This document shows, piece by piece, positions 5,008 through 51,387 of a stretch of 64,000 bases of DNA. The stretch covers positions 96,001 through 160,000 of the forward strand of contig JAWBAI010000001.1 in NCBI GenBank assembly GCA_038816475.1, written 5' to 3'. The first letter of the stretch is position 1. Each line of letters opens with the position of its first letter. This stretch comes from Desulfurococcaceae archaeon. Its GTDB lineage: Archaea > Thermoproteota > Thermoprotei_A > Sulfolobales > Desulfurococcaceae. The notes under the pieces are model-generated. The model was not told the DNA's origin. It saw only the letters and a list, made by a program, of their open reading frames with translations, and made no database searches. Made by a program: the position numbers and the translations under genes.

Positions 5008-5832
5008 TTGTTGCGAATCGATATGGTCTACGATGCGAGCGACTACAAGTACATAGGTTCTGATAAGGTGTCCTCCATAGGCTTAGGAACCTACGGTATT
5101 AGATCTTACAGTCAAGCTCTGAAAGCAATGATCTACGCGATTACGCAGGGTATAAACCTGATCGATACAGCTGAGATGTACGATGGTGGAAGAGCTGAAG
5201 AGCTTGTAGGTAGAGTAATCAAGGAGGTGGGAAGGGACAGCGTCTTCATAACAACAAAAATGCTCCCGGAGAGGCTCAACGACCCAGAGAAGATAATTAG
5301 AGCTGCAGAGGGTTCTCTAAGAAGATTAGGTGTTAAATATGTAGATCTTTTCCTAATACACTGGCCTAGTGGGAATCTGAGCATAGAAAAGCAGGTACAG
5401 AACTTTGAGTTGGTTGCTGAAAGGGGTTTCACAAGATACATCGGTGTAAGCAACTTCGATGCATCAGAGCTCCAAATAGCAATGCATTCGACTAGGAAGC
5501 ACGAGATAGTTGCAAACCAGGTTCACTACAGTGTTATAAACAGGCATCGCGTTGAAAAAGAGCTTCTTCCACTCTGCATACAGTACAGAGTTACTATTCA
5601 AGCTTATACTCCGCTGGAGAGGGGAGCAGTAGCGTATAATCCCGTTGTTGTCTCAGTAGCAAGTAAGTATGGTAAAACGCCTATTCAGGCTGCGTTGAAC
5701 TACCTAATAAGCCATAAGAACGTAGTTGCAATACCAAAATCTGAGCGGGTGGAGCATGTGAAAGAGATACTGGGCTCCACGGGTTGGAGACTTGGGCTTG
5801 AAGACCTGGAGTACATTAAGATGCACGCTTAG
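5008..5832 (+). CDS. Aldo/keto reductase
   Basis: IGLGT, IDTAEMY, DLFLIHWP, IGVSNF and IPKS motifs. Confidence 0.92.
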   Translation: MLRIDMVYDASDYKYIGSDKVSSIGLGTYGIRSYSQALKAMIYAITQGINLIDTAEMYDGGRAEELVGRVIKEVGRDSVFITTKMLPERLNDPEKIIRAAEGSLRRLGVKYVDLFLIHWPSGNLSIEKQVQNFELVAERGFTRYIGVSNFDASELQIAMHSTRKHEIVANQVHYSVINRHRVEKELLPLCIQYRVTIQAYTPLERGAVAYNPVVVSVASKYGKTPIQAALNYLISHKNVVAIPKSERVEHVKEILGSTGWRLGLEDLEYIKMHA

Positions 5833-6947
5833 TAGGCATTACCGAGCAGGAAAACGTTTTCTATCCAGACGTTTTTAAGTCCGTTCTCTCTCGCGATCTT
5901 CAATGCTTTTTCAGCGTGATTCCAGCTCGTTGTAGGTAGGTCTATCAGCATGTAATCTGGGTGGAATCCAAGGAGTATGTACGGAATCTCAGGATTTATG
6001 CTTGCTATGTACCTCGTTATTTGATCCACCTCGTATTCATCAACGTAACCTGGTACTAGAAGCGTTGAAACAACGAGTATAGGGGGTTCTTGCCTGGCCT
6101 TTGTGTACTTTGCAACTAACTTGATGTTATCCCTGATAATTCTCACGTGTTTTTCCTCAATACCGCATAGAACACTGTAAACCTCTGGACTCCAAGCTTT
6201 AAAGTCTATTTTGACTATGCCACCTGTTACTAGGCTAAGCTCGGCAGCCTTCTCCAGTAGTATAGGGTTCCACAAGCCGTTTGTTTCCCAGCATACTCTA
6301 AAAACGCGTAAACCAATACTCTTAGCGCGTTCAATCATCATCCTGGAGGAGATTATAGCATGGGGAGCGAAAGGACCCGGATCTCCGCCAAAGTAGCATA
6401 CACACGTGGTTCTCTGGTTAACAGCTGATACGAGGTCGCTTATTGAGAGAACAGGCTTTGCTTTGTAAGCCATTTCTCTATACTCCCAATTTTGGCAGTA
6501 AAGGCAGTCCAAGTTGCATCCACCATAGAAAACGGCTATGTTGTAGTATCCTCTTTCCCCCCTGGGGTGGAGCGCGTAATGAGGATATCCGAGCCCCGTG
6601 GCAGCTGGACATACAGGAAGTGCAACGCAGTTGGTTGGATGTGGATCGTAGTAGTACATGCCTACAGCTCTGTCTGGTGCTAGCGTGGAAACAGAAATTT
6701 TTCCTTCACGATTGACTCTGTAACCGCAGAAACCACGTGAATTTATAGGTATTGTGCACTCTCTGCCGCAAACCTTACACTTATAGCCATCTTCAATGAT
6801 GAACTCTACGGGAAGCTTAAACCTTGATCGAGACTCCATATGCGGATCTCTATGCGGTTTTAGACCTCTTCGCACGCAGGAAACACATAAACCCACAATG
6901 TCGCTCACTGTAGTACTACGAATATTACAGCTCCTGCATGTACCCAT
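5829..6947 (-). CDS. Radical SAM protein (PFL-activating enzyme-like)
   Basis: GCNLDCLYCQN CxxxCxxC, ETNG, N-terminal Cys clusters. Confidence 0.88.
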   Translation of the reverse strand: MGTCRSCNIRSTTVSDIVGLCVSCVRRGLKPHRDPHMESRSRFKLPVEFIIEDGYKCKVCGRECTIPINSRGFCGYRVNREGKISVSTLAPDRAVGMYYYDPHPTNCVALPVCPAATGLGYPHYALHPRGERGYYNIAVFYGGCNLDCLYCQNWEYREMAYKAKPVLSISDLVSAVNQRTTCVCYFGGDPGPFAPHAIISSRMMIERAKSIGLRVFRVCWETNGLWNPILLEKAAELSLVTGGIVKIDFKAWSPEVYSVLCGIEEKHVRIIRDNIKLVAKYTKARQEPPILVVSTLLVPGYVDEYEVDQITRYIASINPEIPYILLGFHPDYMLIDLPTTSWNHAEKALKIARENGLKNVWIENVFLLGNAY

Positions 6948-33640: not shown

Positions 33641-33988
33641 TTGTTGAGTGGGGAACCGGAGAAAAAAGAGTTTCCAATTCACTGGATAAGCAAGGATGCT
33701 AGGTACAAAGTAATAGAGTTCATGCTGTCCACTAGAAGTGTGACAGAGCTTGCTAGGCAACTAGGTGTTTCACCAACAGCCGTTAGAAAATACATTAAAA
33801 GGCTGTCACATCCTAGCGATGAAGTGTTTGAAAGAGCTATAAAGTCCCTTGCACCCTACGAGATGGAGCCAATACTGGAAATAATAACCGATGACTTAGC
33901 TACCGCTATACGCAAGCTCTATGCAGCTGTGGATGATAACTACAAGGAAACAATAAGAAGAAAGCTGAGAGAAATAATTGGGTTGTAG
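33641..33988 (+). CDS. HTH (Xre-like) DNA-binding protein
   Basis: SVTELARQLGVSPTAVRKY..HPSD. Confidence 0.8.
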   Translation: MLSGEPEKKEFPIHWISKDARYKVIEFMLSTRSVTELARQLGVSPTAVRKYIKRLSHPSDEVFERAIKSLAPYEMEPILEIITDDLATAIRKLYAAVDDNYKETIRRKLREIIGL

Positions 33989-33990
33989 TT

Positions 33991-34368
33991 TTGTCTAGTG
34001 ATAAGCCTTTTTTATCGAGTAGCAAGATCATAGAAGACTACAAACTACTTTTAAAGTACATGGAGAAGTGTAGATTAACTGGAGCTGAGTGCGAGAAACT
34101 TCTTCCAACATCTCAGATTCTAGCTAAAATTAAAGCACTCATAGAATCACGTGTAGCAACCTTTGAAGATGTATTAGGCTTTGTTGAGAAGGAGTTCTAC
34201 AACGAGATAAACTGCGAGATCTGCGTAGACGCGTTCAAGGAAGTGTATGGTATTAGTGTTGACTGTGATAAGGCTAGAAGAGCTCTAATAGTGCAGATCA
34301 CTGGGTGGTTCATCGAAATACTGGATACACTCGGCTACGTTAAAATAAAGTACTCGTGGAAACCATAA
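33991..34368 (+). CDS. hypothetical protein
   Basis: 125-aa ORF 2 nt after the HTH gene. Confidence 0.65.
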   Translation: MSSDKPFLSSSKIIEDYKLLLKYMEKCRLTGAECEKLLPTSQILAKIKALIESRVATFEDVLGFVEKEFYNEINCEICVDAFKEVYGISVDCDKARRALIVQITGWFIEILDTLGYVKIKYSWKP

Positions 34369-34520: not shown

Positions 34521-35516
34521 ATGAAAATTAGGACTAGCCATGTAGGTAGCTTTCCGCTCTCTTACTCAGAGGAGAACGTAGTTAGAGCATTGAAAGACAT
34601 GTGGAGTATAAACATAGATGCTCCTCCGTATCCTCAGTTGAGGAGTTTTATTGAAATTTACTTGAATCCCCTGGTATCTCAGGGGGTCTTACACAGAGTA
34701 AAAGACATCTTTGTTGCTGAAAAAAGCAAACTCGAGCTATCCAATGTTAGGTTTACCGGAATACCCGAGGCCGAGGTTACCATTAGGGTTGTCAAGAATA
34801 AGGGTTTAAAGTTTAAGTGGTTGAGAGCACCTGTTACTGGCGCTTTTACATTGGCTTCAAGAGTTTATCTTCATGAAGACTTTACAAAAGGGATTTCAGC
34901 AACAGCTTTAGCGGACAAAGGCTTAGTTAAGGAGTTTTTCGCCGCGTTTGTGAAGGAAGCTGTTAAATACTTATCCAACTTGGGTTACAACATAGTGTTC
35001 ATAGATGAACCATCGTTAACCCTTGTTGTTGGAAAGAAACGACTGCTGTTTGACTACAAAGAAGATGAAATAATAGAGGTTCTAGACGATGTTGGTAAAT
35101 CGACCAGTAGCGATGTAGGTATACATGTTTGTGGTTTGCTTCACCGCAGATTACTGGAGCTAATCGTACGAGTTCCCAGTATAAAGTACATCAGCATAGA
35201 GCTTCACGATACTCCCGAAAACTTTGAATTAATAGAGAAGAGTCTTCTCGAGCTCTACGATAAGGTATTGAGTCCAGGAATAGTTAGTTCCAAGAAGCCT
35301 GTTGTGGAAGACCTGAACGATGCATTGAATGTTCTAAGGGTGGCCTACGAGAGATCAGCGGGGAGAATAGACCTGGTATCGGGTGATTGCGGTTTCAGAG
35401 GTCTAAGGAGTTCTCTCGGGGATGAGGAACGCGAGTACAGTATTTCACTAGAGAAGCTAAGTGTTATTGCAAAAGCAGTTAGGCTTTTTGAGGAGACTAT
35501 CTCAAGGATGAGCTGA
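34521..35516 (+). CDS. Single-domain ('core') methionine synthase, MetE C-terminal type
   Basis: HVGSFP, PVTGAFTLA, IDEP, Zn ligands HVC, E, DCGF; 331 aa with no folate-binding half. Confidence 0.82.
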   Translation: MKIRTSHVGSFPLSYSEENVVRALKDMWSINIDAPPYPQLRSFIEIYLNPLVSQGVLHRVKDIFVAEKSKLELSNVRFTGIPEAEVTIRVVKNKGLKFKWLRAPVTGAFTLASRVYLHEDFTKGISATALADKGLVKEFFAAFVKEAVKYLSNLGYNIVFIDEPSLTLVVGKKRLLFDYKEDEIIEVLDDVGKSTSSDVGIHVCGLLHRRLLELIVRVPSIKYISIELHDTPENFELIEKSLLELYDKVLSPGIVSSKKPVVEDLNDALNVLRVAYERSAGRIDLVSGDCGFRGLRSSLGDEEREYSISLEKLSVIAKAVRLFEETISRMS

Positions 35517-35517
35517 A

Positions 35518-37359
35518 TTGCCAGTAGTTGAGCTTTATCCTGGCTACATTAGGGTAGAAGTCGAGAAAGGCTCTACACTGCTTCTAGCTGTGCAAAAAGC
35601 TGGCGTGCCCTTCACAAGCTACTGTGGCGGACTAGGCTCGTGTGGTAAATGCCGAGTTGTAGTGAGCAAGGGAGTTCAAAACTTAAATGCTCCAACTAGA
35701 GCAGAGTTAAGGTTTTTGAACCAGCAGGATCTCGAGAAGAACATTAGATTAGCGTGTCAAGCTAGGGTCTTTGGGGACTACGTACTGATTCGTATACCAG
35801 AGGAGTCAATGGCTGTATCGGGAGGAAGGCTTGTACCCGCAATCGCTTTGAGAGATGACCTGTACCCTCTTAACCCGGTTGTCAGAAAAATACATGTTGT
35901 GTTACCCCCACCAACCCTTGAAGACAATAGATCAGACCTTGATAGACTTACAGGTGCTGTTATCGAAAAAGGGATTGCAGTAAAAGAGCTACACGTTCCA
36001 TTAAAAATACTCCGTGAACTACCAGCTATCCTTAGAAGTAGTAACTGGAATGTGACAGTTGTTTTATACGGAGATGAAGTAATCACTGTAGAACCCGGAG
36101 ACACATCTAGCTACCTATACGGCGTTGCGGTTGACATAGGTACTTCTAAGATCATCGCTGAACTCGTGGACCTAAATAGTGGTGAAACACTTGCGCGAGA
36201 CTTCGTTGAAAACCCTCAACTGGTTTACGGTGCAGATGTTGTTTCCCGAGCTGTATACGCTCAGAGGAGTGCTGAGAACCTGGCTGAGCTACAACGAGTA
36301 GTCGTTAAAGCCATTAACAGTCTGGTGGATAAGCTTGCGGAGAAAAGTGGTGTGAATAAGAAGTACGTGTACGAAGTGGTAGTTGTAGGGAACTCTGTAA
36401 TGCTCCACTTGCTCTACGGCATACCCCCAGATCCTATCATACGATCTCCCTACGTACCTGTTGTTTCTCGCATTCAGAGTTATCGAGCCGAGGACTTAGG
36501 TCTTTCAATAAACCATCTGGGTTACGTATCTTCTCTTCCCATAGTCGGAGGCTTTGTTGGAGCCGATGCGGTAGCCGATATTCTCGCTACACAGATGCAC
36601 AGGAAAAGCGAGTTGTCTCTACTCATCGATATAGGCACAAACACTGAGGTTTTGCTTGGAAACTCCGAGCTGATACTTGCAGCATCAGCGCCTTCAGGAC
36701 CAGCGTTCGAGGGTGCTCACGTATCGCACGGTATGAAGGCTGTTCACGGAGCAATAGAGTCCGTTAGGATTAAGGGTTTAGACGTCGAGTACGAGACCAT
36801 TGGTGGAGTAAAACCTAGAGGAATATGTGGAACAGGGTTGGTGGATACTGTAGCCGAACTTTACAGAAACGGTATTATAGATCATCAAGGTAAGTTCATG
36901 GACGTTAAACACCCGAGGATTGTTAGAGAAAAGAACACTCTCAGATTCATTCTAGCATACGCCAAGGAAACGGCAACAGGAGAAGATATCTACGTTACAC
37001 CAAAAGACATAGAGGCTGTTCTGCTAGCGAAAGCGGCGATAAGGTCCGCGTGGACTCTTCTCATGAGAAAGCTCAATGTAAAAACCTCGGATATAACCTG
37101 GGTCTACGTTGCAGGTTCTTTTGGTACACGTTTAAACATTGACAACGCCATTGAAATAGGCTTGCTTCCCCGTATTGACACAGGTAGAGTAGTATTCGTG
37201 GGAGAATGCGCTATCGTAGGAGCGAAAATGGCTTTGAAATCCACCGAAGCTCGGAGAGAAGTAGAGGAGCTAGTGAAAACGAAAGTCAAGTATGTTGAGC
37301 TTTCAGCCGATCCAGAGTTTCGCAAGGAGTATCTTCGATCACTAGGACTCGGCGTGTAG
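35518..37359 (+). CDS. RACo-type ATP-dependent reductive activator of corrinoid proteins (2Fe-2S + ASKHA)
   Basis: CGGLGSCGKC..RLACQ ferredoxin; VDIGT, YGADVVSR, IDIGTNTE, GPAFEG, GICGTG, AGSFG. Confidence 0.92.
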   Translation: MPVVELYPGYIRVEVEKGSTLLLAVQKAGVPFTSYCGGLGSCGKCRVVVSKGVQNLNAPTRAELRFLNQQDLEKNIRLACQARVFGDYVLIRIPEESMAVSGGRLVPAIALRDDLYPLNPVVRKIHVVLPPPTLEDNRSDLDRLTGAVIEKGIAVKELHVPLKILRELPAILRSSNWNVTVVLYGDEVITVEPGDTSSYLYGVAVDIGTSKIIAELVDLNSGETLARDFVENPQLVYGADVVSRAVYAQRSAENLAELQRVVVKAINSLVDKLAEKSGVNKKYVYEVVVVGNSVMLHLLYGIPPDPIIRSPYVPVVSRIQSYRAEDLGLSINHLGYVSSLPIVGGFVGADAVADILATQMHRKSELSLLIDIGTNTEVLLGNSELILAASAPSGPAFEGAHVSHGMKAVHGAIESVRIKGLDVEYETIGGVKPRGICGTGLVDTVAELYRNGIIDHQGKFMDVKHPRIVREKNTLRFILAYAKETATGEDIYVTPKDIEAVLLAKAAIRSAWTLLMRKLNVKTSDITWVYVAGSFGTRLNIDNAIEIGLLPRIDTGRVVFVGECAIVGAKMALKSTEARREVEELVKTKVKYVELSADPEFRKEYLRSLGLGV

Positions 37360-37451
37360 AGTAAAAACATGGTGAAACACTTAGCTAATGTAATGGTGAA
37401 CAAAGGAGTTCCCATGAGTAAAGCAGACTGGTCTATATGGTTAAGAGAGTT

Positions 37452-38735
37452 CTAGTAGGAACCATATTTCAGCACGGCATTAATGTATGCTTTTACACTA
37501 GCTGGGTTTACATCTGCTGGAAGTTCTGCAACTCCAGGTGCTATCATGAACCCCCCTTCGGGTTTAATCTTCTGAAGGATGTTTTTAACGTACTCTTCGA
37601 CTTTCTCAGGAGACTGGTAGAATAAAGATGGTGGAATACCACCTGCAACAGCTGTATGACCCTTCAGCTTGTCCCATACGTTTTTAACAAAATCCCTTGG
37701 TCTTTCAAACCACGCTATACCCCAGCCCTTCGGTAGCTCGAGTATAGTGTCCACGTGAGGAGAGTGATCTCCCTCGAAGAAAACGAATCCCTTGTACCCT
37801 TTGCTCACCAGGGTTTCTATGATCTTCCTCAGGTAAGGCCAGTAGAACTCTACGTAGAGTTTAGGTGGCAACATCTCGTTCAAGTGTAGAGGAATGAAGA
37901 ACAGCGTTAAAGGTTGCATCGGTGGTATGGCTGTAGCAACTCTCAGTATGGCATTCATTAGTGCGTCACAAGATGCTTTGAAATCCTCAGGGTATCTTCT
38001 GATGTCCACCATAGCTCCTGTCGGGTGTCTGAGGAAATCTCCGATCAAGTCAGCTGGAACATAAGCGTTGGTTAATGGAATTAACGGATACCACTTAAGC
38101 TGTGATAGTATTTCAACCATGAAGCTAATTGTCCTCTGAACAGCTATTCCAGCTCTTATCAACATACCGTTCCAATGCGTAGTACCCGGTGTACCCAGCC
38201 CTGGACAAGCTCTCGGCAGGATCACGTTGTGTATGAACTCAACAGGGTTCTCAGCCAGCTTCTTATATTCATTCGGCTCCATGAACGCTCCTCCGACGAA
38301 CTGTGGATGCATGTGGTCGTCTAACTCTCTTCCAGGCCATTTGCTCCACTTGTCTCTTAGCACATCGTGTAGTGGACCGGAGATGAACCTTATGAGGTTG
38401 GAGAAGTCGGGGAAGTCGGAGAAGGCTACAGCCAGTATGAAGCCCTCGAGAAGGTAAGGAACGAAGATCAGTCCAAAGTCAGATGGATATTCAAGAGTGT
38501 ATTTCAAAACAGCATTCTTCGCTCTGGGAGTTAACTCGTAGGAGAGCTCGTACCACGTTAAACCTGTTTGAGTTATCATGAAATCTCCACTGGGTGCAAG
38601 AAGTGGTACCCTATCGGGTGTTCTAAGTTCAATTATATTCATAATTCTCGTTAGTTTTTCCTTGGCTACAACCTCTGGTTCTCTTCTATGCTCCTCCATC
38701 CATTTAGTCAAATGCTCGAACCGGGTACAGCTCAT
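37452..38735 (-). CDS. UroD-fold substrate:corrinoid methyltransferase (MT1-like)
   Basis: PDRVP, FIPLH..EM..P..Y.EFYWP, FFEGD, GGIP, GGFMIAPG, NVKAY-like C-terminus. Confidence 0.8.
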   Translation of the reverse strand: MSCTRFEHLTKWMEEHRREPEVVAKEKLTRIMNIIELRTPDRVPLLAPSGDFMITQTGLTWYELSYELTPRAKNAVLKYTLEYPSDFGLIFVPYLLEGFILAVAFSDFPDFSNLIRFISGPLHDVLRDKWSKWPGRELDDHMHPQFVGGAFMEPNEYKKLAENPVEFIHNVILPRACPGLGTPGTTHWNGMLIRAGIAVQRTISFMVEILSQLKWYPLIPLTNAYVPADLIGDFLRHPTGAMVDIRRYPEDFKASCDALMNAILRVATAIPPMQPLTLFFIPLHLNEMLPPKLYVEFYWPYLRKIIETLVSKGYKGFVFFEGDHSPHVDTILELPKGWGIAWFERPRDFVKNVWDKLKGHTAVAGGIPPSLFYQSPEKVEEYVKNILQKIKPEGGFMIAPGVAELPADVNPASVKAYINAVLKYGSY

Positions 38736-38739
38736 ATTT

Positions 38740-39393
38740 TTACCCCTTACGCTTGGATTTTTCTTCTACCCAGTTCAGCATTATCTTAATACCTTCTCCT
38801 GCGTCGTTAGCCCAAGCGTCTGCACCTACGTACTCGCAGATGTACTGATCCACTCTTCCTCCTCCAATGATCACCTTTATTCTTCTTCTGAGGCCAGCCT
38901 CTCTAATTGCATCAATGGTCTTTTTCATTGACTCTATTCCGCTTGTTAGTAAGCATGACAATCCCACTATATCTGGGTTGTGTTGCTTAATTGCCTCAAT
39001 AAACCTGTGAGGTGACACATCAACGCCAAGGTCTACTACCTCAAAGCCTGCAGCTTCAGCCAACGCTACTACGATGTTTTTGCCAATATCGTGTATATCT
39101 CCTTCAACGGTTCCAATAACGAGTTTACCTAAAACCTCCCTTGGTTTACCCAGTGTTTTCAGCTTTTCTCTAGCCATGCTAGAGATGGTTTTCATTATCT
39201 CAGCTGCCATAACCAAATCAGCAACGAAAAACTCTCCCTTTTCGTATTTTTCTCCAACAACTTCGGCAGCTCTCCTCAGATCCTCGAGGAGAAGACGCGG
39301 ATCCTCTACCTCTAACCGTCTCTTAGCCAATTCAATCGCTTTAACCTCATCGAGCTCGACAATGGCGTTCACAAGCTCTTCCGATAAACTCAT
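38740..39393 (-). CDS. Corrinoid (cobalamin-binding) methyl-carrier protein, MtaC-like
   Basis: Cap domain VGEKYEKGEFF, GTVEGDIHDIGKN (DxHxxG), DLGVDV, GLSCL, IIGG; ATG start at 39393. Confidence 0.93.
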   Translation of the reverse strand: MSLSEELVNAIVELDEVKAIELAKRRLEVEDPRLLLEDLRRAAEVVGEKYEKGEFFVADLVMAAEIMKTISSMAREKLKTLGKPREVLGKLVIGTVEGDIHDIGKNIVVALAEAAGFEVVDLGVDVSPHRFIEAIKQHNPDIVGLSCLLTSGIESMKKTIDAIREAGLRRRIKVIIGGGRVDQYICEYVGADAWANDAGEGIKIMLNWVEEKSKRKG

Positions 39394-39639
39394 ACAACCC
39401 ATCCTCAGACTACAAGCAATAGAATTCCCATGCTTAAAGCTTTTCTTTAAGAATGCAACCACTTAACTTAGCAGATTGTCCTAACCAATGGATAGCCGGT
39501 GAACCCAGCAATGTGTAGAGTACTGCATGATTAAACTACCTCGCACACATGTGAACAAGCGCCGTGCGCCTCGATTTGTGCTGAGCCATATTGGTCGATA
39601 TGTAACTGTGAAAGAATTCATAACACCTGGGGGACGGGT

Positions 39640-49471: not shown

Positions 49472-50473
49472 TTACTCGGCCAGTTCTTCTAGGAATGCGG
49501 CAAAGTCGTATGTGTGCACAGCTTTAACGGTATCAAGAGCCCATCCAAGCTTGTCTATCAGTATTAAAACTGCTGCTTGTGGTGGTATAACACCATACTC
49601 TGTTACTATGGCATCAATGTACTCTGGAGGTGTTACGTCGAATACTGGGTTTAATACCTTGACACGTGGATGCGATTTTAGCCAGTCGGATGGTACAACT
49701 TCTTCTTCGCTTCTGAACTCTATTTTGACGAGTTCTCCGAAGAGCGTTAGTGGTGAAAACTTGTACGATTCAGCTGCTACGTAAAACCTAACTCTAGCCT
49801 CCTTGGCTGCAAGAGCAACCTGGCTTGTTCCAATCTTGTTCACCACGGCACCATTACTGGCAACAGCGTCGGCGCCCACGATCACGTAGTCTACTTCATG
49901 CATGAGGTATCTAACAGCGCTATCTGGAATCTGCTCAGCGGGTATACCGTACTTCAGGAGATGCGCCATTGTAATTCTGCCTTGCATAAATGGCCTGGTC
50001 TCTGTACTGTAGACTTTTTCGATTCTGCCTTGTCTATAGGCTTCTGCTATTAGCTCTACAGCAGCTGTACTATGGCAGTGGGTGAGCACGATGGAACCGG
50101 GTTTTATCCTCTTGGCACCTATTTCGCTTATCTTTTTGACGGCTTCTCTGGAGTTTTTCACGAACTCTTCAGAGGCTGTTACAACAGCTTCTCTTGCTTC
50201 ATCAAAGTTCGTTTTACCCTTCAGAGACCTGAGAACGTACACGACAGCGTTCGGTAAACTTACGGCTGTGGGTCTCGTCGTGATCAGCATATCTCCGATC
50301 TTCACCATATACTTCTTGAAGTCCTCAACCGAGCGCAGACCACTGTAGCTTAGAGCAGCTATCTTGAGAGCGTTTGCAGCAGCTCTGGCTATTTCACCAG
50401 CGCCCCTTATTCTCATAGTTCTTATGCCATCTGCTATCTCGAGAACCTGCTCAGGGATGATAGCTCCGTTCAC
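49472..50473 (-). CDS. Ribose-1,5-bisphosphate isomerase (eIF2B-like)
   Basis: MRIRGAG, RPTAVSL, THCHS, ETRP, VGAD, NKIGT, NPVFDVTP. Confidence 0.9.
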   Translation of the reverse strand: MNGAIIPEQVLEIADGIRTMRIRGAGEIARAAANALKIAALSYSGLRSVEDFKKYMVKIGDMLITTRPTAVSLPNAVVYVLRSLKGKTNFDEAREAVVTASEEFVKNSREAVKKISEIGAKRIKPGSIVLTHCHSTAAVELIAEAYRQGRIEKVYSTETRPFMQGRITMAHLLKYGIPAEQIPDSAVRYLMHEVDYVIVGADAVASNGAVVNKIGTSQVALAAKEARVRFYVAAESYKFSPLTLFGELVKIEFRSEEEVVPSDWLKSHPRVKVLNPVFDVTPPEYIDAIVTEYGVIPPQAAVLILIDKLGWALDTVKAVHTYDFAAFLEELAE

Positions 50474-51387
50474 GTCTTGCTCACCAGTGAGAGAATATCC
50501 TCGATGGGTGTAACCTGCGGTGGGTACGAGCCGTAGATTAGTCTAAGGAGAATCGGAACAGCCTGCGGTGCATAGAGGCCATACTCTGTTATTATAGCAT
50601 CAACGTACTCTGGTGGTGTTACATCATATATTGGGACACGAGCTTTGTAGCCGCTTGGCAATTTCGCGATATCCTCCGAACTTACTAAAGCTGAGAAGTC
50701 CTTCTCGGGAACCCGTAGAAGCTCGCCGTGTACAGTTTCATAACTTAGCTTGAACGAAGGTGCAATCACAAAAATCCTTTTTCTGGCTTCCTTTGCTACA
50801 AGGGATATCAAGCTTGTTCCAACCTTTGATACTACAGCACCGTTTGATGCTATGGCCTCAGCCCCAACGAAGACCTTGTCAATGTCTTTCATGAAGAACC
50901 TTGCGGCGGAATCCACTATTAGGTGAACACTATAACCAAGATTTTCCGCGTACTCTGCCATGAGTAGTCCCTCGTTTCCGGGTCTGGACTCCGTTACGTA
51001 GAGAACAACCTCTTTCCCCTGGTCATGCAGAGTCTTTAGTAGTCTTCTAACAGCTAGGCTATTGCTGTTGGTTAACACCTTCTCTCCGCTTAAAACTCTC
51101 CTAGAGGCCATTTCAGCGGCTCTCCACAGCGAATGATCGTACCTGCTTCTCAAATCAGCTACGAAACCGCTAATGCCGTTGAACCCGTGTTCAATGTAGC
51201 GCAGAAGTACAGCTCTAAGTATGTTTATAGCACTCATACATGCTGGTCTCTCAGTTAGTACTTCCCTGGTAAGCTCTATGAGTTTACTTCGAAAGAGCTC
51301 TTCGTCTCCCTTGAGTGCGTATTCATGTAGCTCATTAAGGATGGAGAACGCTAGCTCCGAACCTGTAAGTCTAAAACGAGTGGTCAT
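50470..51387 (-). CDS. eIF2B alpha/beta/delta-family paralog
   Basis: TNSNS, ESRPGNEG, VGAE, SKVGT, YDVTP. Confidence 0.85.
   Translation of the reverse strand: MTTRFRLTGSELAFSILNELHEYALKGDEELFRSKLIELTREVLTERPACMSAINILRAVLLRYIEHGFNGISGFVADLRSRYDHSLWRAAEMASRRVLSGEKVLTNSNSLAVRRLLKTLHDQGKEVVLYVTESRPGNEGLLMAEYAENLGYSVHLIVDSAARFFMKDIDKVFVGAEAIASNGAVVSKVGTSLISLVAKEARKRIFVIAPSFKLSYETVHGELLRVPEKDFSALVSSEDIAKLPSGYKARVPIYDVTPPEYVDAIITEYGLYAPQAVPILLRLIYGSYPPQVTPIEDILSLVSKT

Follow-up and report, generated by a model that had tools for sequence, protein, structure and literature searches.

The stretch of DNA analysed here (64,000 nucleotides, hereafter the window; positions 96,001 to 160,000 of the forward strand of contig JAWBAI010000001.1, assembly GCA_038816475.1, from a Desulfurococcaceae archaeon) carries four adjacent genes that probably constitute a corrinoid-dependent methyl relay with methionine as its output. 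On the plus strand, the gene of a core methionine synthase of 331 amino acids (aa) at 34521..35516 is followed by that of a RACo-type reductive activase of 613 aa at 35518..37359, which starts 1 nt past the synthase stop codon. On the minus strand, a UroD-fold methyltransferase of 427 aa (37452..38735) is paired with a corrinoid protein (CP) of 217 aa (38740..39393), whose gene ends 4 nt ahead of that of the methyltransferase. The two gene pairs are convergent and do not form one operon, both in the window and in locus L002, which has the same layout and a synthase 98% identical to that of the window. All four open reading frames (ORFs) are intact. The CP frame is open up to a GTG at 39462 (ORF 38740-39462, minus strand); its start was taken as the ATG at 39393, residue 24 of the longer frame, because homologs share the resulting length. 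The original prediction, made from the letters of the DNA, had placed a MetE-C-terminal synthase, a RACo, a corrinoid protein with a DxHxxG motif and a methyltransferase of the UroD fold at these positions and spacings, and both the ORF list and the Pfam and NCBIfam searches bear out its coordinates and family calls.

The synthase consists of a single barrel and resembles the C-terminal half of MetE. Meth_synt_2 is its only Pfam domain above cut-off, with a weak score (30.4 bits, cut-off 21), while Meth_synt_1 gives a cross-match of 20.4 bits that lies below cut-off; MetE C-terminal halves are the best structural matches. In an alignment of 24 family members, the residues H202, C204, E227 and C290, which correspond to the zinc ligands, are invariant, and so are S10, located inside an invariant GSFP motif, Q39, and D162. 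A profile built from this alignment and compared with solved structures matches MetE only: Q39, D162, H202/C204, E227 and C290 align to the HGE, IDEP, HMC, SIE and DCG motifs of T. maritima MetE, in agreement with the predicted intact H-x-C/E/C set of zinc ligands. The T. maritima alignment starts at position 18, and S10 presumably corresponds to the serine of the MetE GSFP motif. Q39 and D162 are counterparts of homocysteine-binding residues (the S433, E484 and D599 set of E. coli MetE), with Gln at the E484 position; MesA and MesC carry Gln at the same position, according to the accessible text of Price et al. 2021 (PMC7857596). When the AlphaFold2 model of the synthase (pLDDT 95.4) was compared with known structures by Foldseek, MetE enzymes (PDB ID: 1xdj, a zinc- and homocysteine-bound structure, TM 0.70) and the MesD-type structure 3rpd ranked above MtaA and UroD; the coenzyme M (CoM) methylase MtaA also matches (PDB ID: 4ay7, TM 0.64).

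The synthase family appears to be set apart from the described ones. The best NCBIfam scores of the window protein are those for PRK06052 (64.1 bits, cut-off 387) and PRK00957 (45.8 bits, cut-off 258), and none of the 36 scanned family representatives (E <= 1e-10 to the window protein) reaches any NCBIfam methionine-synthase cut-off. Among 12 remoter representatives scanned, P0204, P0205 and P0212 exceed the cut-off of PRK00957, and P0214 falls a little short of that of PRK06052 (360.6 versus 387 bits). When 1.84 billion cluster representatives were searched exhaustively with phmmer, there were 100 synthase matches at E <= 0.001, 36 of them at E <= 1e-30, and a word-indexed search yielded 197 proteins of the family, the named ones being from Desulfurococcaceae, Ignisphaera, Zestosphaera, Staphylothermus, and Thermogladius. 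On sequence grounds, the family is small and distinct, and the 331-aa protein is a core methionine synthase by its defining features and not a demonstrable member of the families covered by NCBIfam models. The weak scores against methionine synthase models, together with the structural match to MtaA, would also fit a methyltransferase II (MT II) acting on another thiol, or an enzyme working in reverse that moves methyl groups from methionine or another thioether onto the corrinoid. Such a role is highly improbable: the Gln at the middle homocysteine-binding position is the one found in MesA and MesC, MetE enzymes outrank MtaA in the fold search, and the window protein, the sole Meth_synt_2 match of the host genome, is also its only candidate methionine synthase. 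Thioether-to-pterin methyl transfer is, moreover, uphill, as follows from the general energetics of MetH and Mtr.

The 613-aa protein contains the Pfam domains Fer2, RACo_linker, Raco_middle and RACo_C_ter (277.5 bits), that is, the RACo architecture of a 2Fe-2S ferredoxin domain, a linker, a middle domain, and an ASKHA ATPase. Its AcsV-like match in NCBIfam (492.6 bits) is under the cut-off of 800. The CP has a cap domain and a Rossmann domain and matches B12-binding_2 (53.3 bits) and B12-binding (99.2 bits) in Pfam and the methyltransferase cognate corrinoid protein model in NCBIfam (161.5 bits), and its DxHxxG motif (D99, H101, G104) is invariant in 11 aligned corrinoid proteins. The window RACo is the sole RACo_C_ter match of the host genome, and the window CP is the only methyltransferase-type corrinoid protein encoded there.

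The 427-aa protein, the sole URO-D member of the host genome (61.7 bits in Pfam), matches CdmB from Acetobacterium (PDB ID: 9rui) over its full length with an E-value of 1.4e-55; their identity, counted on the alignment of this match, is about 32%. No NCBIfam match of the MtaA/MtbA type was obtained for it. Because it is a full-length homolog of CdmB, the protein is classed, from its sequence, as a methyl-loading enzyme of the methyltransferase I (MT I) type within the CdmB/MtoB clade. CdmB, described in 2026, is the chloromethane:corrinoid MT I of Acetobacterium; according to the accessible text of that description, it works without zinc, hydrophobic channels guide haloalkanes, and among characterised enzymes the archaeal O-demethylase MtoB is nearest to it, at 31% (PMC13222342). 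Orthologs of the window-type MT I occur in congeners, Ignisphaera, Nezhaarchaeales, and Bathyarchaeia at 59-78% identity (59-67% outside the congeners), and relatives at about 45% identity are present in thermophilic Bacillota. The window clade is populous and has invariant residues of its own, and its invariant C177 is replaced by Tyr in CdmB. The substrate of the window enzyme cannot be read from CdmB.

Some relatives of the window MT I show gene arrangements of their own. In two Ignisphaera-type genomes, an MT I ortholog, a CP and a major facilitator superfamily (MFS) transporter form a co-directional triad (L121:6384-9847 and L122:5808-9334), which hints at an imported solute as the substrate there. 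As a hint for the window enzyme the transporter was set aside: it lies beside the CP-MT I pair in two of three Ignisphaera loci, but no homolog is present in the host genome or in L002-L004. Elsewhere, three MT I paralogs with 37-38% identity to the window MT I stand in tandem arrays (G121:C34:9902-13877 and G128:C15:14473-18457). Similar groups of MT I paralogs are present in acetogens with a broad range of methoxylated substrates. In a genome assembled as a single contig (G004:C1:1065781-1067700), the MT I ortholog has two in-frame stops and the neighbouring CP match lies in an open frame of 72 aa; this CP-MT I pair looks decayed, and the synthase, RACo, MtrH and another CP remain in that genome.

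The four-gene unit is conserved beyond L002. At L003 and L004, whose synthases are 64% and 62% identical to that of the window, the four genes are co-directional and tightly spaced in the order Mes-RACo-CP-MT I, and none of the flanking genes of the window was found at either locus. The values for loci L078 and L079, which were cut from the congeners G184 and G247, are identical to those for L004 and L003, and these loci were not counted anew. The co-location search that the original prediction had called for has thus returned the unit in two other species with different flanking genes. At 44 of 74 synthase loci, at least one partner is encoded within the available flank (CP at 38, RACo at 34, a donor methyltransferase at 37, and methylenetetrahydrofolate reductase, MTHFR, at 4), with a median synthase-to-CP gap of 148 bp. 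The original prediction had also stated what would speak against it, namely that the position of the synthase next to the other genes is not conserved. Such adjacency is seen for at least one partner at the 44 linked loci and for all of them in the arrays of L003 and L004, and is rare for the window-type MT I, which stands beside the synthase in 3 of the 19 genomes that carry it.

The type of donor methyltransferase (Pfam) varies from locus to locus. MtrH-like genes are found in L036, L049, L061, L040, L027, and L015, MttB family genes are located beside the synthase in L011, L028, and L014, and genes of the URO-D family are confined, among the loci examined with Pfam, to the window clade and L015; MTHFR accompanies the synthase module in L041, L045, L047, and L061. 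A tree of 67 synthase homologs (8 of 75 rows were dropped, their match covering <85% of the query) unites the UroD-adjacent rows in one clade with support 100/99. This clade nests in a group of 27 rows that also contains MttB-adjacent and dispersed Ignisphaera types, and the remaining lineages are made up of MtrH-adjacent rows.

The association also holds across 251 genomes of the order. The synthase is present in 69 of them, and its partners are nearly confined to these: 63 of the 64 genomes with RACo are synthase-positive, as are 65 of the 69 with B12-binding_2 and all carriers of MtrH (53/53), MttB (25/25) and the window-type MT I (19/19). Synthase, RACo, CP and a donor methyltransferase occur together in 60 of the 251 genomes, and none of these is found in 177. 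The distribution is patchy within families (24/38 genomes in f1, 13/39 in f3, and 1/29 in f2), the components going together in presence and absence. Among the 69 synthase-positive genomes, 31 have MtrH only and 11 have MttB only as donor methyltransferase, and the host is the only one in which a CdmB-like enzyme is the sole donor methyltransferase. Within the same order, RACo and MtrH each fall into two classes that follow the type of cluster. Encoded beside the synthase are a short RACo that lacks the linker domain (about 520-570 aa, 110-195 bits) and a low-scoring MtrH (85-190 bits), and a long RACo (about 600-660 aa, >250 bits) and a high-scoring MtrH (>230 bits) occur with MttB/UroD modules or dispersed.

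In the host genome (G000; 1.15 Mb, 18 contigs, 92.03% complete), profile searches and tblastn did not find MtrH, Pterin_bind (PF00809), or MTHFR. The MetH-type homocysteine domain S-methyl_trans (PF02574) was not found there either, and neither the N-terminal MetE half (Meth_synt_1) nor the corrinoid iron-sulfur protein (CoFeSP, searched as CdhD) gave a match above cut-off. The genome check advised in the original prediction, for a pterin MT2, CoFeSP, Mtr and the N-terminal MetE half, thus came back without any of them in the 92.03%-complete assembly, and split MetE, CoFeSP and MetH are not supported as routes to methionine in this genome. An MT II with a pterin as acceptor (MtrH/MtoA or MeTr/CdmA type) was not found in the assembly either, nor was one of the MtaA type, which would methylate CoM. 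One S-adenosylhomocysteine hydrolase is encoded.

A comparison with two congeners bears on the missing pterin branch. In G184, MtrH is located in a tetrahydromethanopterin (H4MPT) island (L076:91-10128), beside Ftr, three Fwd-like genes (molybdopterin, amidohydrolase, GXGXG) and Mch; the island further holds genes of a RimK-type ATP-grasp ligase and of proteins resembling thymidylate synthase and F420 ligase. Only the thymidylate-synthase-like and F420-ligase-like genes are seen next to MtrH in G247, where it is on a short contig (L077:350-3015). Seven of the ten island genes tested have no match in the host genome at E <= 0.01, and the genes that flank the island of G184 map mid-contig on contig C6 of the host, with no N there. 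For these reasons, loss of the H4MPT methyl branch in the host appears to be the likelier reading.

Taken together, the four genes may be read as a self-contained corrinoid methyl relay with methionine as its output, a reading to which we assign a probability of roughly 65%. Comparative genomics supports it: the genes and their families, the catalytic residues, the recurrence of the four-gene unit, the co-occurrence across genomes and the lack of other partners in the host assembly are observed, and we infer the protein-to-protein transfer of the methyl group, its direction, and its donor. In the proposed cycle, RACo would use ATP and a low-potential electron to return the Co(II) form of the CP to Co(I). 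The CdmB-like MT I would then transfer a methyl group from an external donor to Co(I), giving CH3-Co(III) CP; judging by analogy with the MT I family, a methoxylated aromatic compound or a methyl halide is a candidate donor. The core synthase would act as MT II: zinc-activated homocysteine would take the methyl group from the methylated CP, yielding methionine and Co(I). As the homocysteine would come from S-adenosylhomocysteine hydrolase, the relay would close the methyl cycle of S-adenosylmethionine (SAM) without a methyl-pterin. In most relatives, an MtrH-type enzyme, sometimes together with MTHFR, would load the CP from a methyl-pterin, resulting in an analogue of MetH made of separate proteins. 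MttB and CdmB-like loaders may represent alternative or additional inputs, with some lineages being MttB-fed. In genomes with MtrH, the CP may act as a hub and supply methyl groups to the pterin pool as well.

The idea of the original prediction that the core synthase fills the MT2 slot is hence supported by the recurring four-gene unit, the linkage at 44 of 74 loci, the near-exclusive co-occurrence, and the MT I-type UroD protein. Its second idea, a pterin-independent route, fits this genome and the 11 MttB-only genomes and does not extend to most relatives, which have an MtrH-type (pterin) donor module. A more far-reaching version can be offered tentatively, at somewhat under even odds: the H4MPT one-carbon (C1) branch would have been lost, and the methyl group of methionine, and through SAM that of every methylation in the cell, would be drawn directly from an environmental compound (for instance a methoxylated aromatic or a methyl halide) by four proteins that relay it via B12 without a pterin. 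In this version, the synthase would represent a fifth core family and its donor a dedicated MetH-type CP kept active by RACo.

Several observations weigh against the relay. As to the proteins, the Meth_synt_2 score is weak and no NCBIfam cut-off is reached, so that homocysteine specificity rests on the conserved residues and the modelled fold. As to the comparative data, the sampled genomes are related and their counts are not independent, so the co-occurrence overstates the independent support; 30 of the 74 loci have no partner, among them 14 with a flank of 5 kb or more to either side; of the 19 sampled genomes carrying the window-type MT I, 16 encode it away from the synthase; and outside the order, none of 20 loci with synthase homologs at 27-42% identity shows a partner within 8 kb. 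RACo is present somewhere in 19 and CP in 18 of those 20 genomes, a co-presence that was not used as support, there being no synthase-negative comparison group. As to the host, searches of its genome detected neither CobS nor CbiB, so that the corrinoid is presumably imported, and a B12 transporter was not found in the window. Both congeners with this array, G184 and G247, also encode MtrH at another place, and with 8% of the host genome missing, a pterin branch could sit in unassembled DNA. Finally, contigs from an RNA library (X1), 95-99% alike, cover 26 of 30 bins and are no proof of transcription. Raw-read metatranscriptomes (X3-X5) gave 0 reads on the locus, the presence of the organism in those runs not being established.

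Part of this evidence would suit an adjacency that is functionally meaningless, the synthase being fed otherwise, or standing idle in a peptide fermenter that imports methionine, while the corrinoid module serves another acceptor. The gene pairs of the window and L002 are convergent, the CP-MT I pair of Ignisphaera is far from the synthase, and there is no clustering outside the order. Such a reading is nevertheless quite improbable in view of L003 and L004, where the four genes run in one direction with tight spacing in unrelated contexts; the components of corrinoid systems in the order sample are, in addition, essentially confined to synthase-positive genomes, and no other zinc/thiol MT II, CoFeSP or pterin methyltransferase was found in the host genome.

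The MtrH genes of the congeners raise another question, namely whether MT I, CP and activase form an ordinary catabolic system whose true MT II is an MtrH-type enzyme passing methyl groups to H4MPT, encoded in the unassembled 8% of the host genome, with the synthase as a side branch of the same carrier. Such a system would explain why G184 and G247 combine the array with MtrH (in G184 within the H4MPT island) and why MtrH is encoded in all but one of the 19 genomes that carry the window-type MT I; Culexarchaeia mtrH-mttB-mttC-activase clusters have been interpreted, in the accessible text of PMC9723716, as catabolic methyl transfer via MtrH, and the host assembly is 92.03% complete. We regard this as rather unlikely, since MtrH, Pterin_bind and MTHFR were not found in the host genome, seven of ten congener island genes are unmatched, and the genes flanking the island are mid-contig on C6. 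Even if true, it would leave the link between synthase and CP intact, and the methionine-producing relay remains the preferred interpretation of the four genes.

Core methionine synthases were reportedly first described by Schroeder and Thauer in 1999. Their natural methyl donor is treated as unknown in the accessible parts of Deobald 2020 (PMC7005905) and Price 2021 (PMC7857596); they use methylcobalamin in vitro, and a corrinoid protein has been hypothesised as donor (same sources). The original prediction took it as established that these enzymes accept methyl groups from MtrA or CoFeSP, which, as far as the available text goes, is only a prediction in Price et al. 2021 (PMC7857596); a term search of that text did not find the Desulfurococcales-type archaea in which the window family occurs. 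Like MesA, MesB and MesC, the window synthase lacks the folate-binding half of MetE and consists of one catalytic barrel, keeps the zinc and homocysteine residues, and is expected to use a methyl-corrinoid donor. Unlike them, it appears to belong to a separate sequence family, and its predicted donor is a dedicated MetH-type CP with its own RACo rather than MtrA or CoFeSP.

The remaining parts of the unit can be compared with four known systems. As in the Cdm system of Acetobacterium dehalogenans (CdmB/CdmC/CdmA), an MT I of the UroD superfamily is encoded directly beside its CP, and a separate activase is needed (PMC13222342, accessible text). The window MT I, however, is about 32% identical to CdmB, below the 40% group of that paper, and the proposed MT II is a MetE-type synthase instead of the pterin-binding CdmA, of which no counterpart was found in the genome; the host is, besides, archaeal and thermophilic. 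The MtoABCD set of Methermicoccus and Archaeoglobus is likewise archaeal and four-part, with a UroD-type MT I, a CP, a RACo-like activase, and an MT II. In this methoxydotrophy system, MtoA is said to be of the MtrH type and to pass the methyl group to H4MPT; in the host genome, by contrast, MtrH was not found and the synthase would take its place.

In bacteria, a hub CP that serves both glycine betaine demethylation and methionine synthesis has been shown genetically, for MtgBCDE of Ruegeria pomeroyi and the three-part MetH of Phaeobacter, as reported in the accessible text of PMC12478193. There, too, one CP stands between loaders (MttB-type and pterin-type) and a homocysteine methyltransferase, and reactivation is of the RamA/RACo type; MttB-linked relatives of the window (e.g., L011 and L028) closely parallel MtgBCDE. 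The differences lie in the homocysteine module, which is MetE-type here and MetH-type (PF02574) there, in the CdmB-like loader, and in the pterin module, none being found here. The relay would also follow the chemistry of MetH, in which a methyl donor methylates Co(I), CH3-Co(III) methylates zinc-activated homocysteine, and a repair route exists for Co(II). In contrast to MetH, it would consist of four proteins of different ancestry, repair would be carried out by ATP-dependent RACo rather than by SAM and flavodoxin, and the donor in the host genome would not be methyl-folate. For these archaea, a MetE-type core synthase whose gene accompanies those of a dedicated CP, a RACo and a variable loader was not seen described in the searched literature, which covered few subscription journals and no supplements, and partly through incomplete texts. 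The arrangement is best regarded as a variant of known corrinoid methyl-transfer systems, the pterin-free CdmB-like version being specific to this genome.

The rest of the window encodes housekeeping genes, among which neither a B12 transporter nor pterin genes were found, and base composition is even over its whole length. Just upstream of the synthase, at 33641-34368 on the plus strand, are the gene of a helix-turn-helix (HTH) protein (115 aa) and an ORF of 125 aa that matches no family. They were considered as regulators of the unit and rejected, as they recur only in the near-identical L002 and not in L003 or L004. Two adjoining IF-2B family genes are located at 49472-51387 on the minus strand (297.6 and 173.3 bits). 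This family includes methylthioribose-1-phosphate isomerase, an enzyme of methionine salvage, and ribose-1,5-bisphosphate isomerase. An aldo/keto reductase gene beside a radical SAM gene at 5008-6947, about 28 kb from the synthase, has an equivalent in a Thermogladius locus, where the same pair lies directly downstream of the synthase (L049:9058-11147); this may be chance.

The significance of the relay, if it operates as proposed, extends beyond a single genome. The role of stand-alone MtrH in non-methanogenic archaea has been called unclear (PMC6421429, accessible text), and the comparative pattern, if true, offers one: in Desulfurococcales, MtrH would be the methyl-pterin loader of a dedicated CP. 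With the synthase encoded together with its own carrier, activase and loader, the donor question of core methionine synthases becomes directly testable. The variant in the window may dispense with pterin C1 carriers altogether, its methionine supply being tied to an external methyl compound through a relative of CdmB, and it would then represent a new link between the methylated and halogenated C1 compounds of hot springs and core metabolism.

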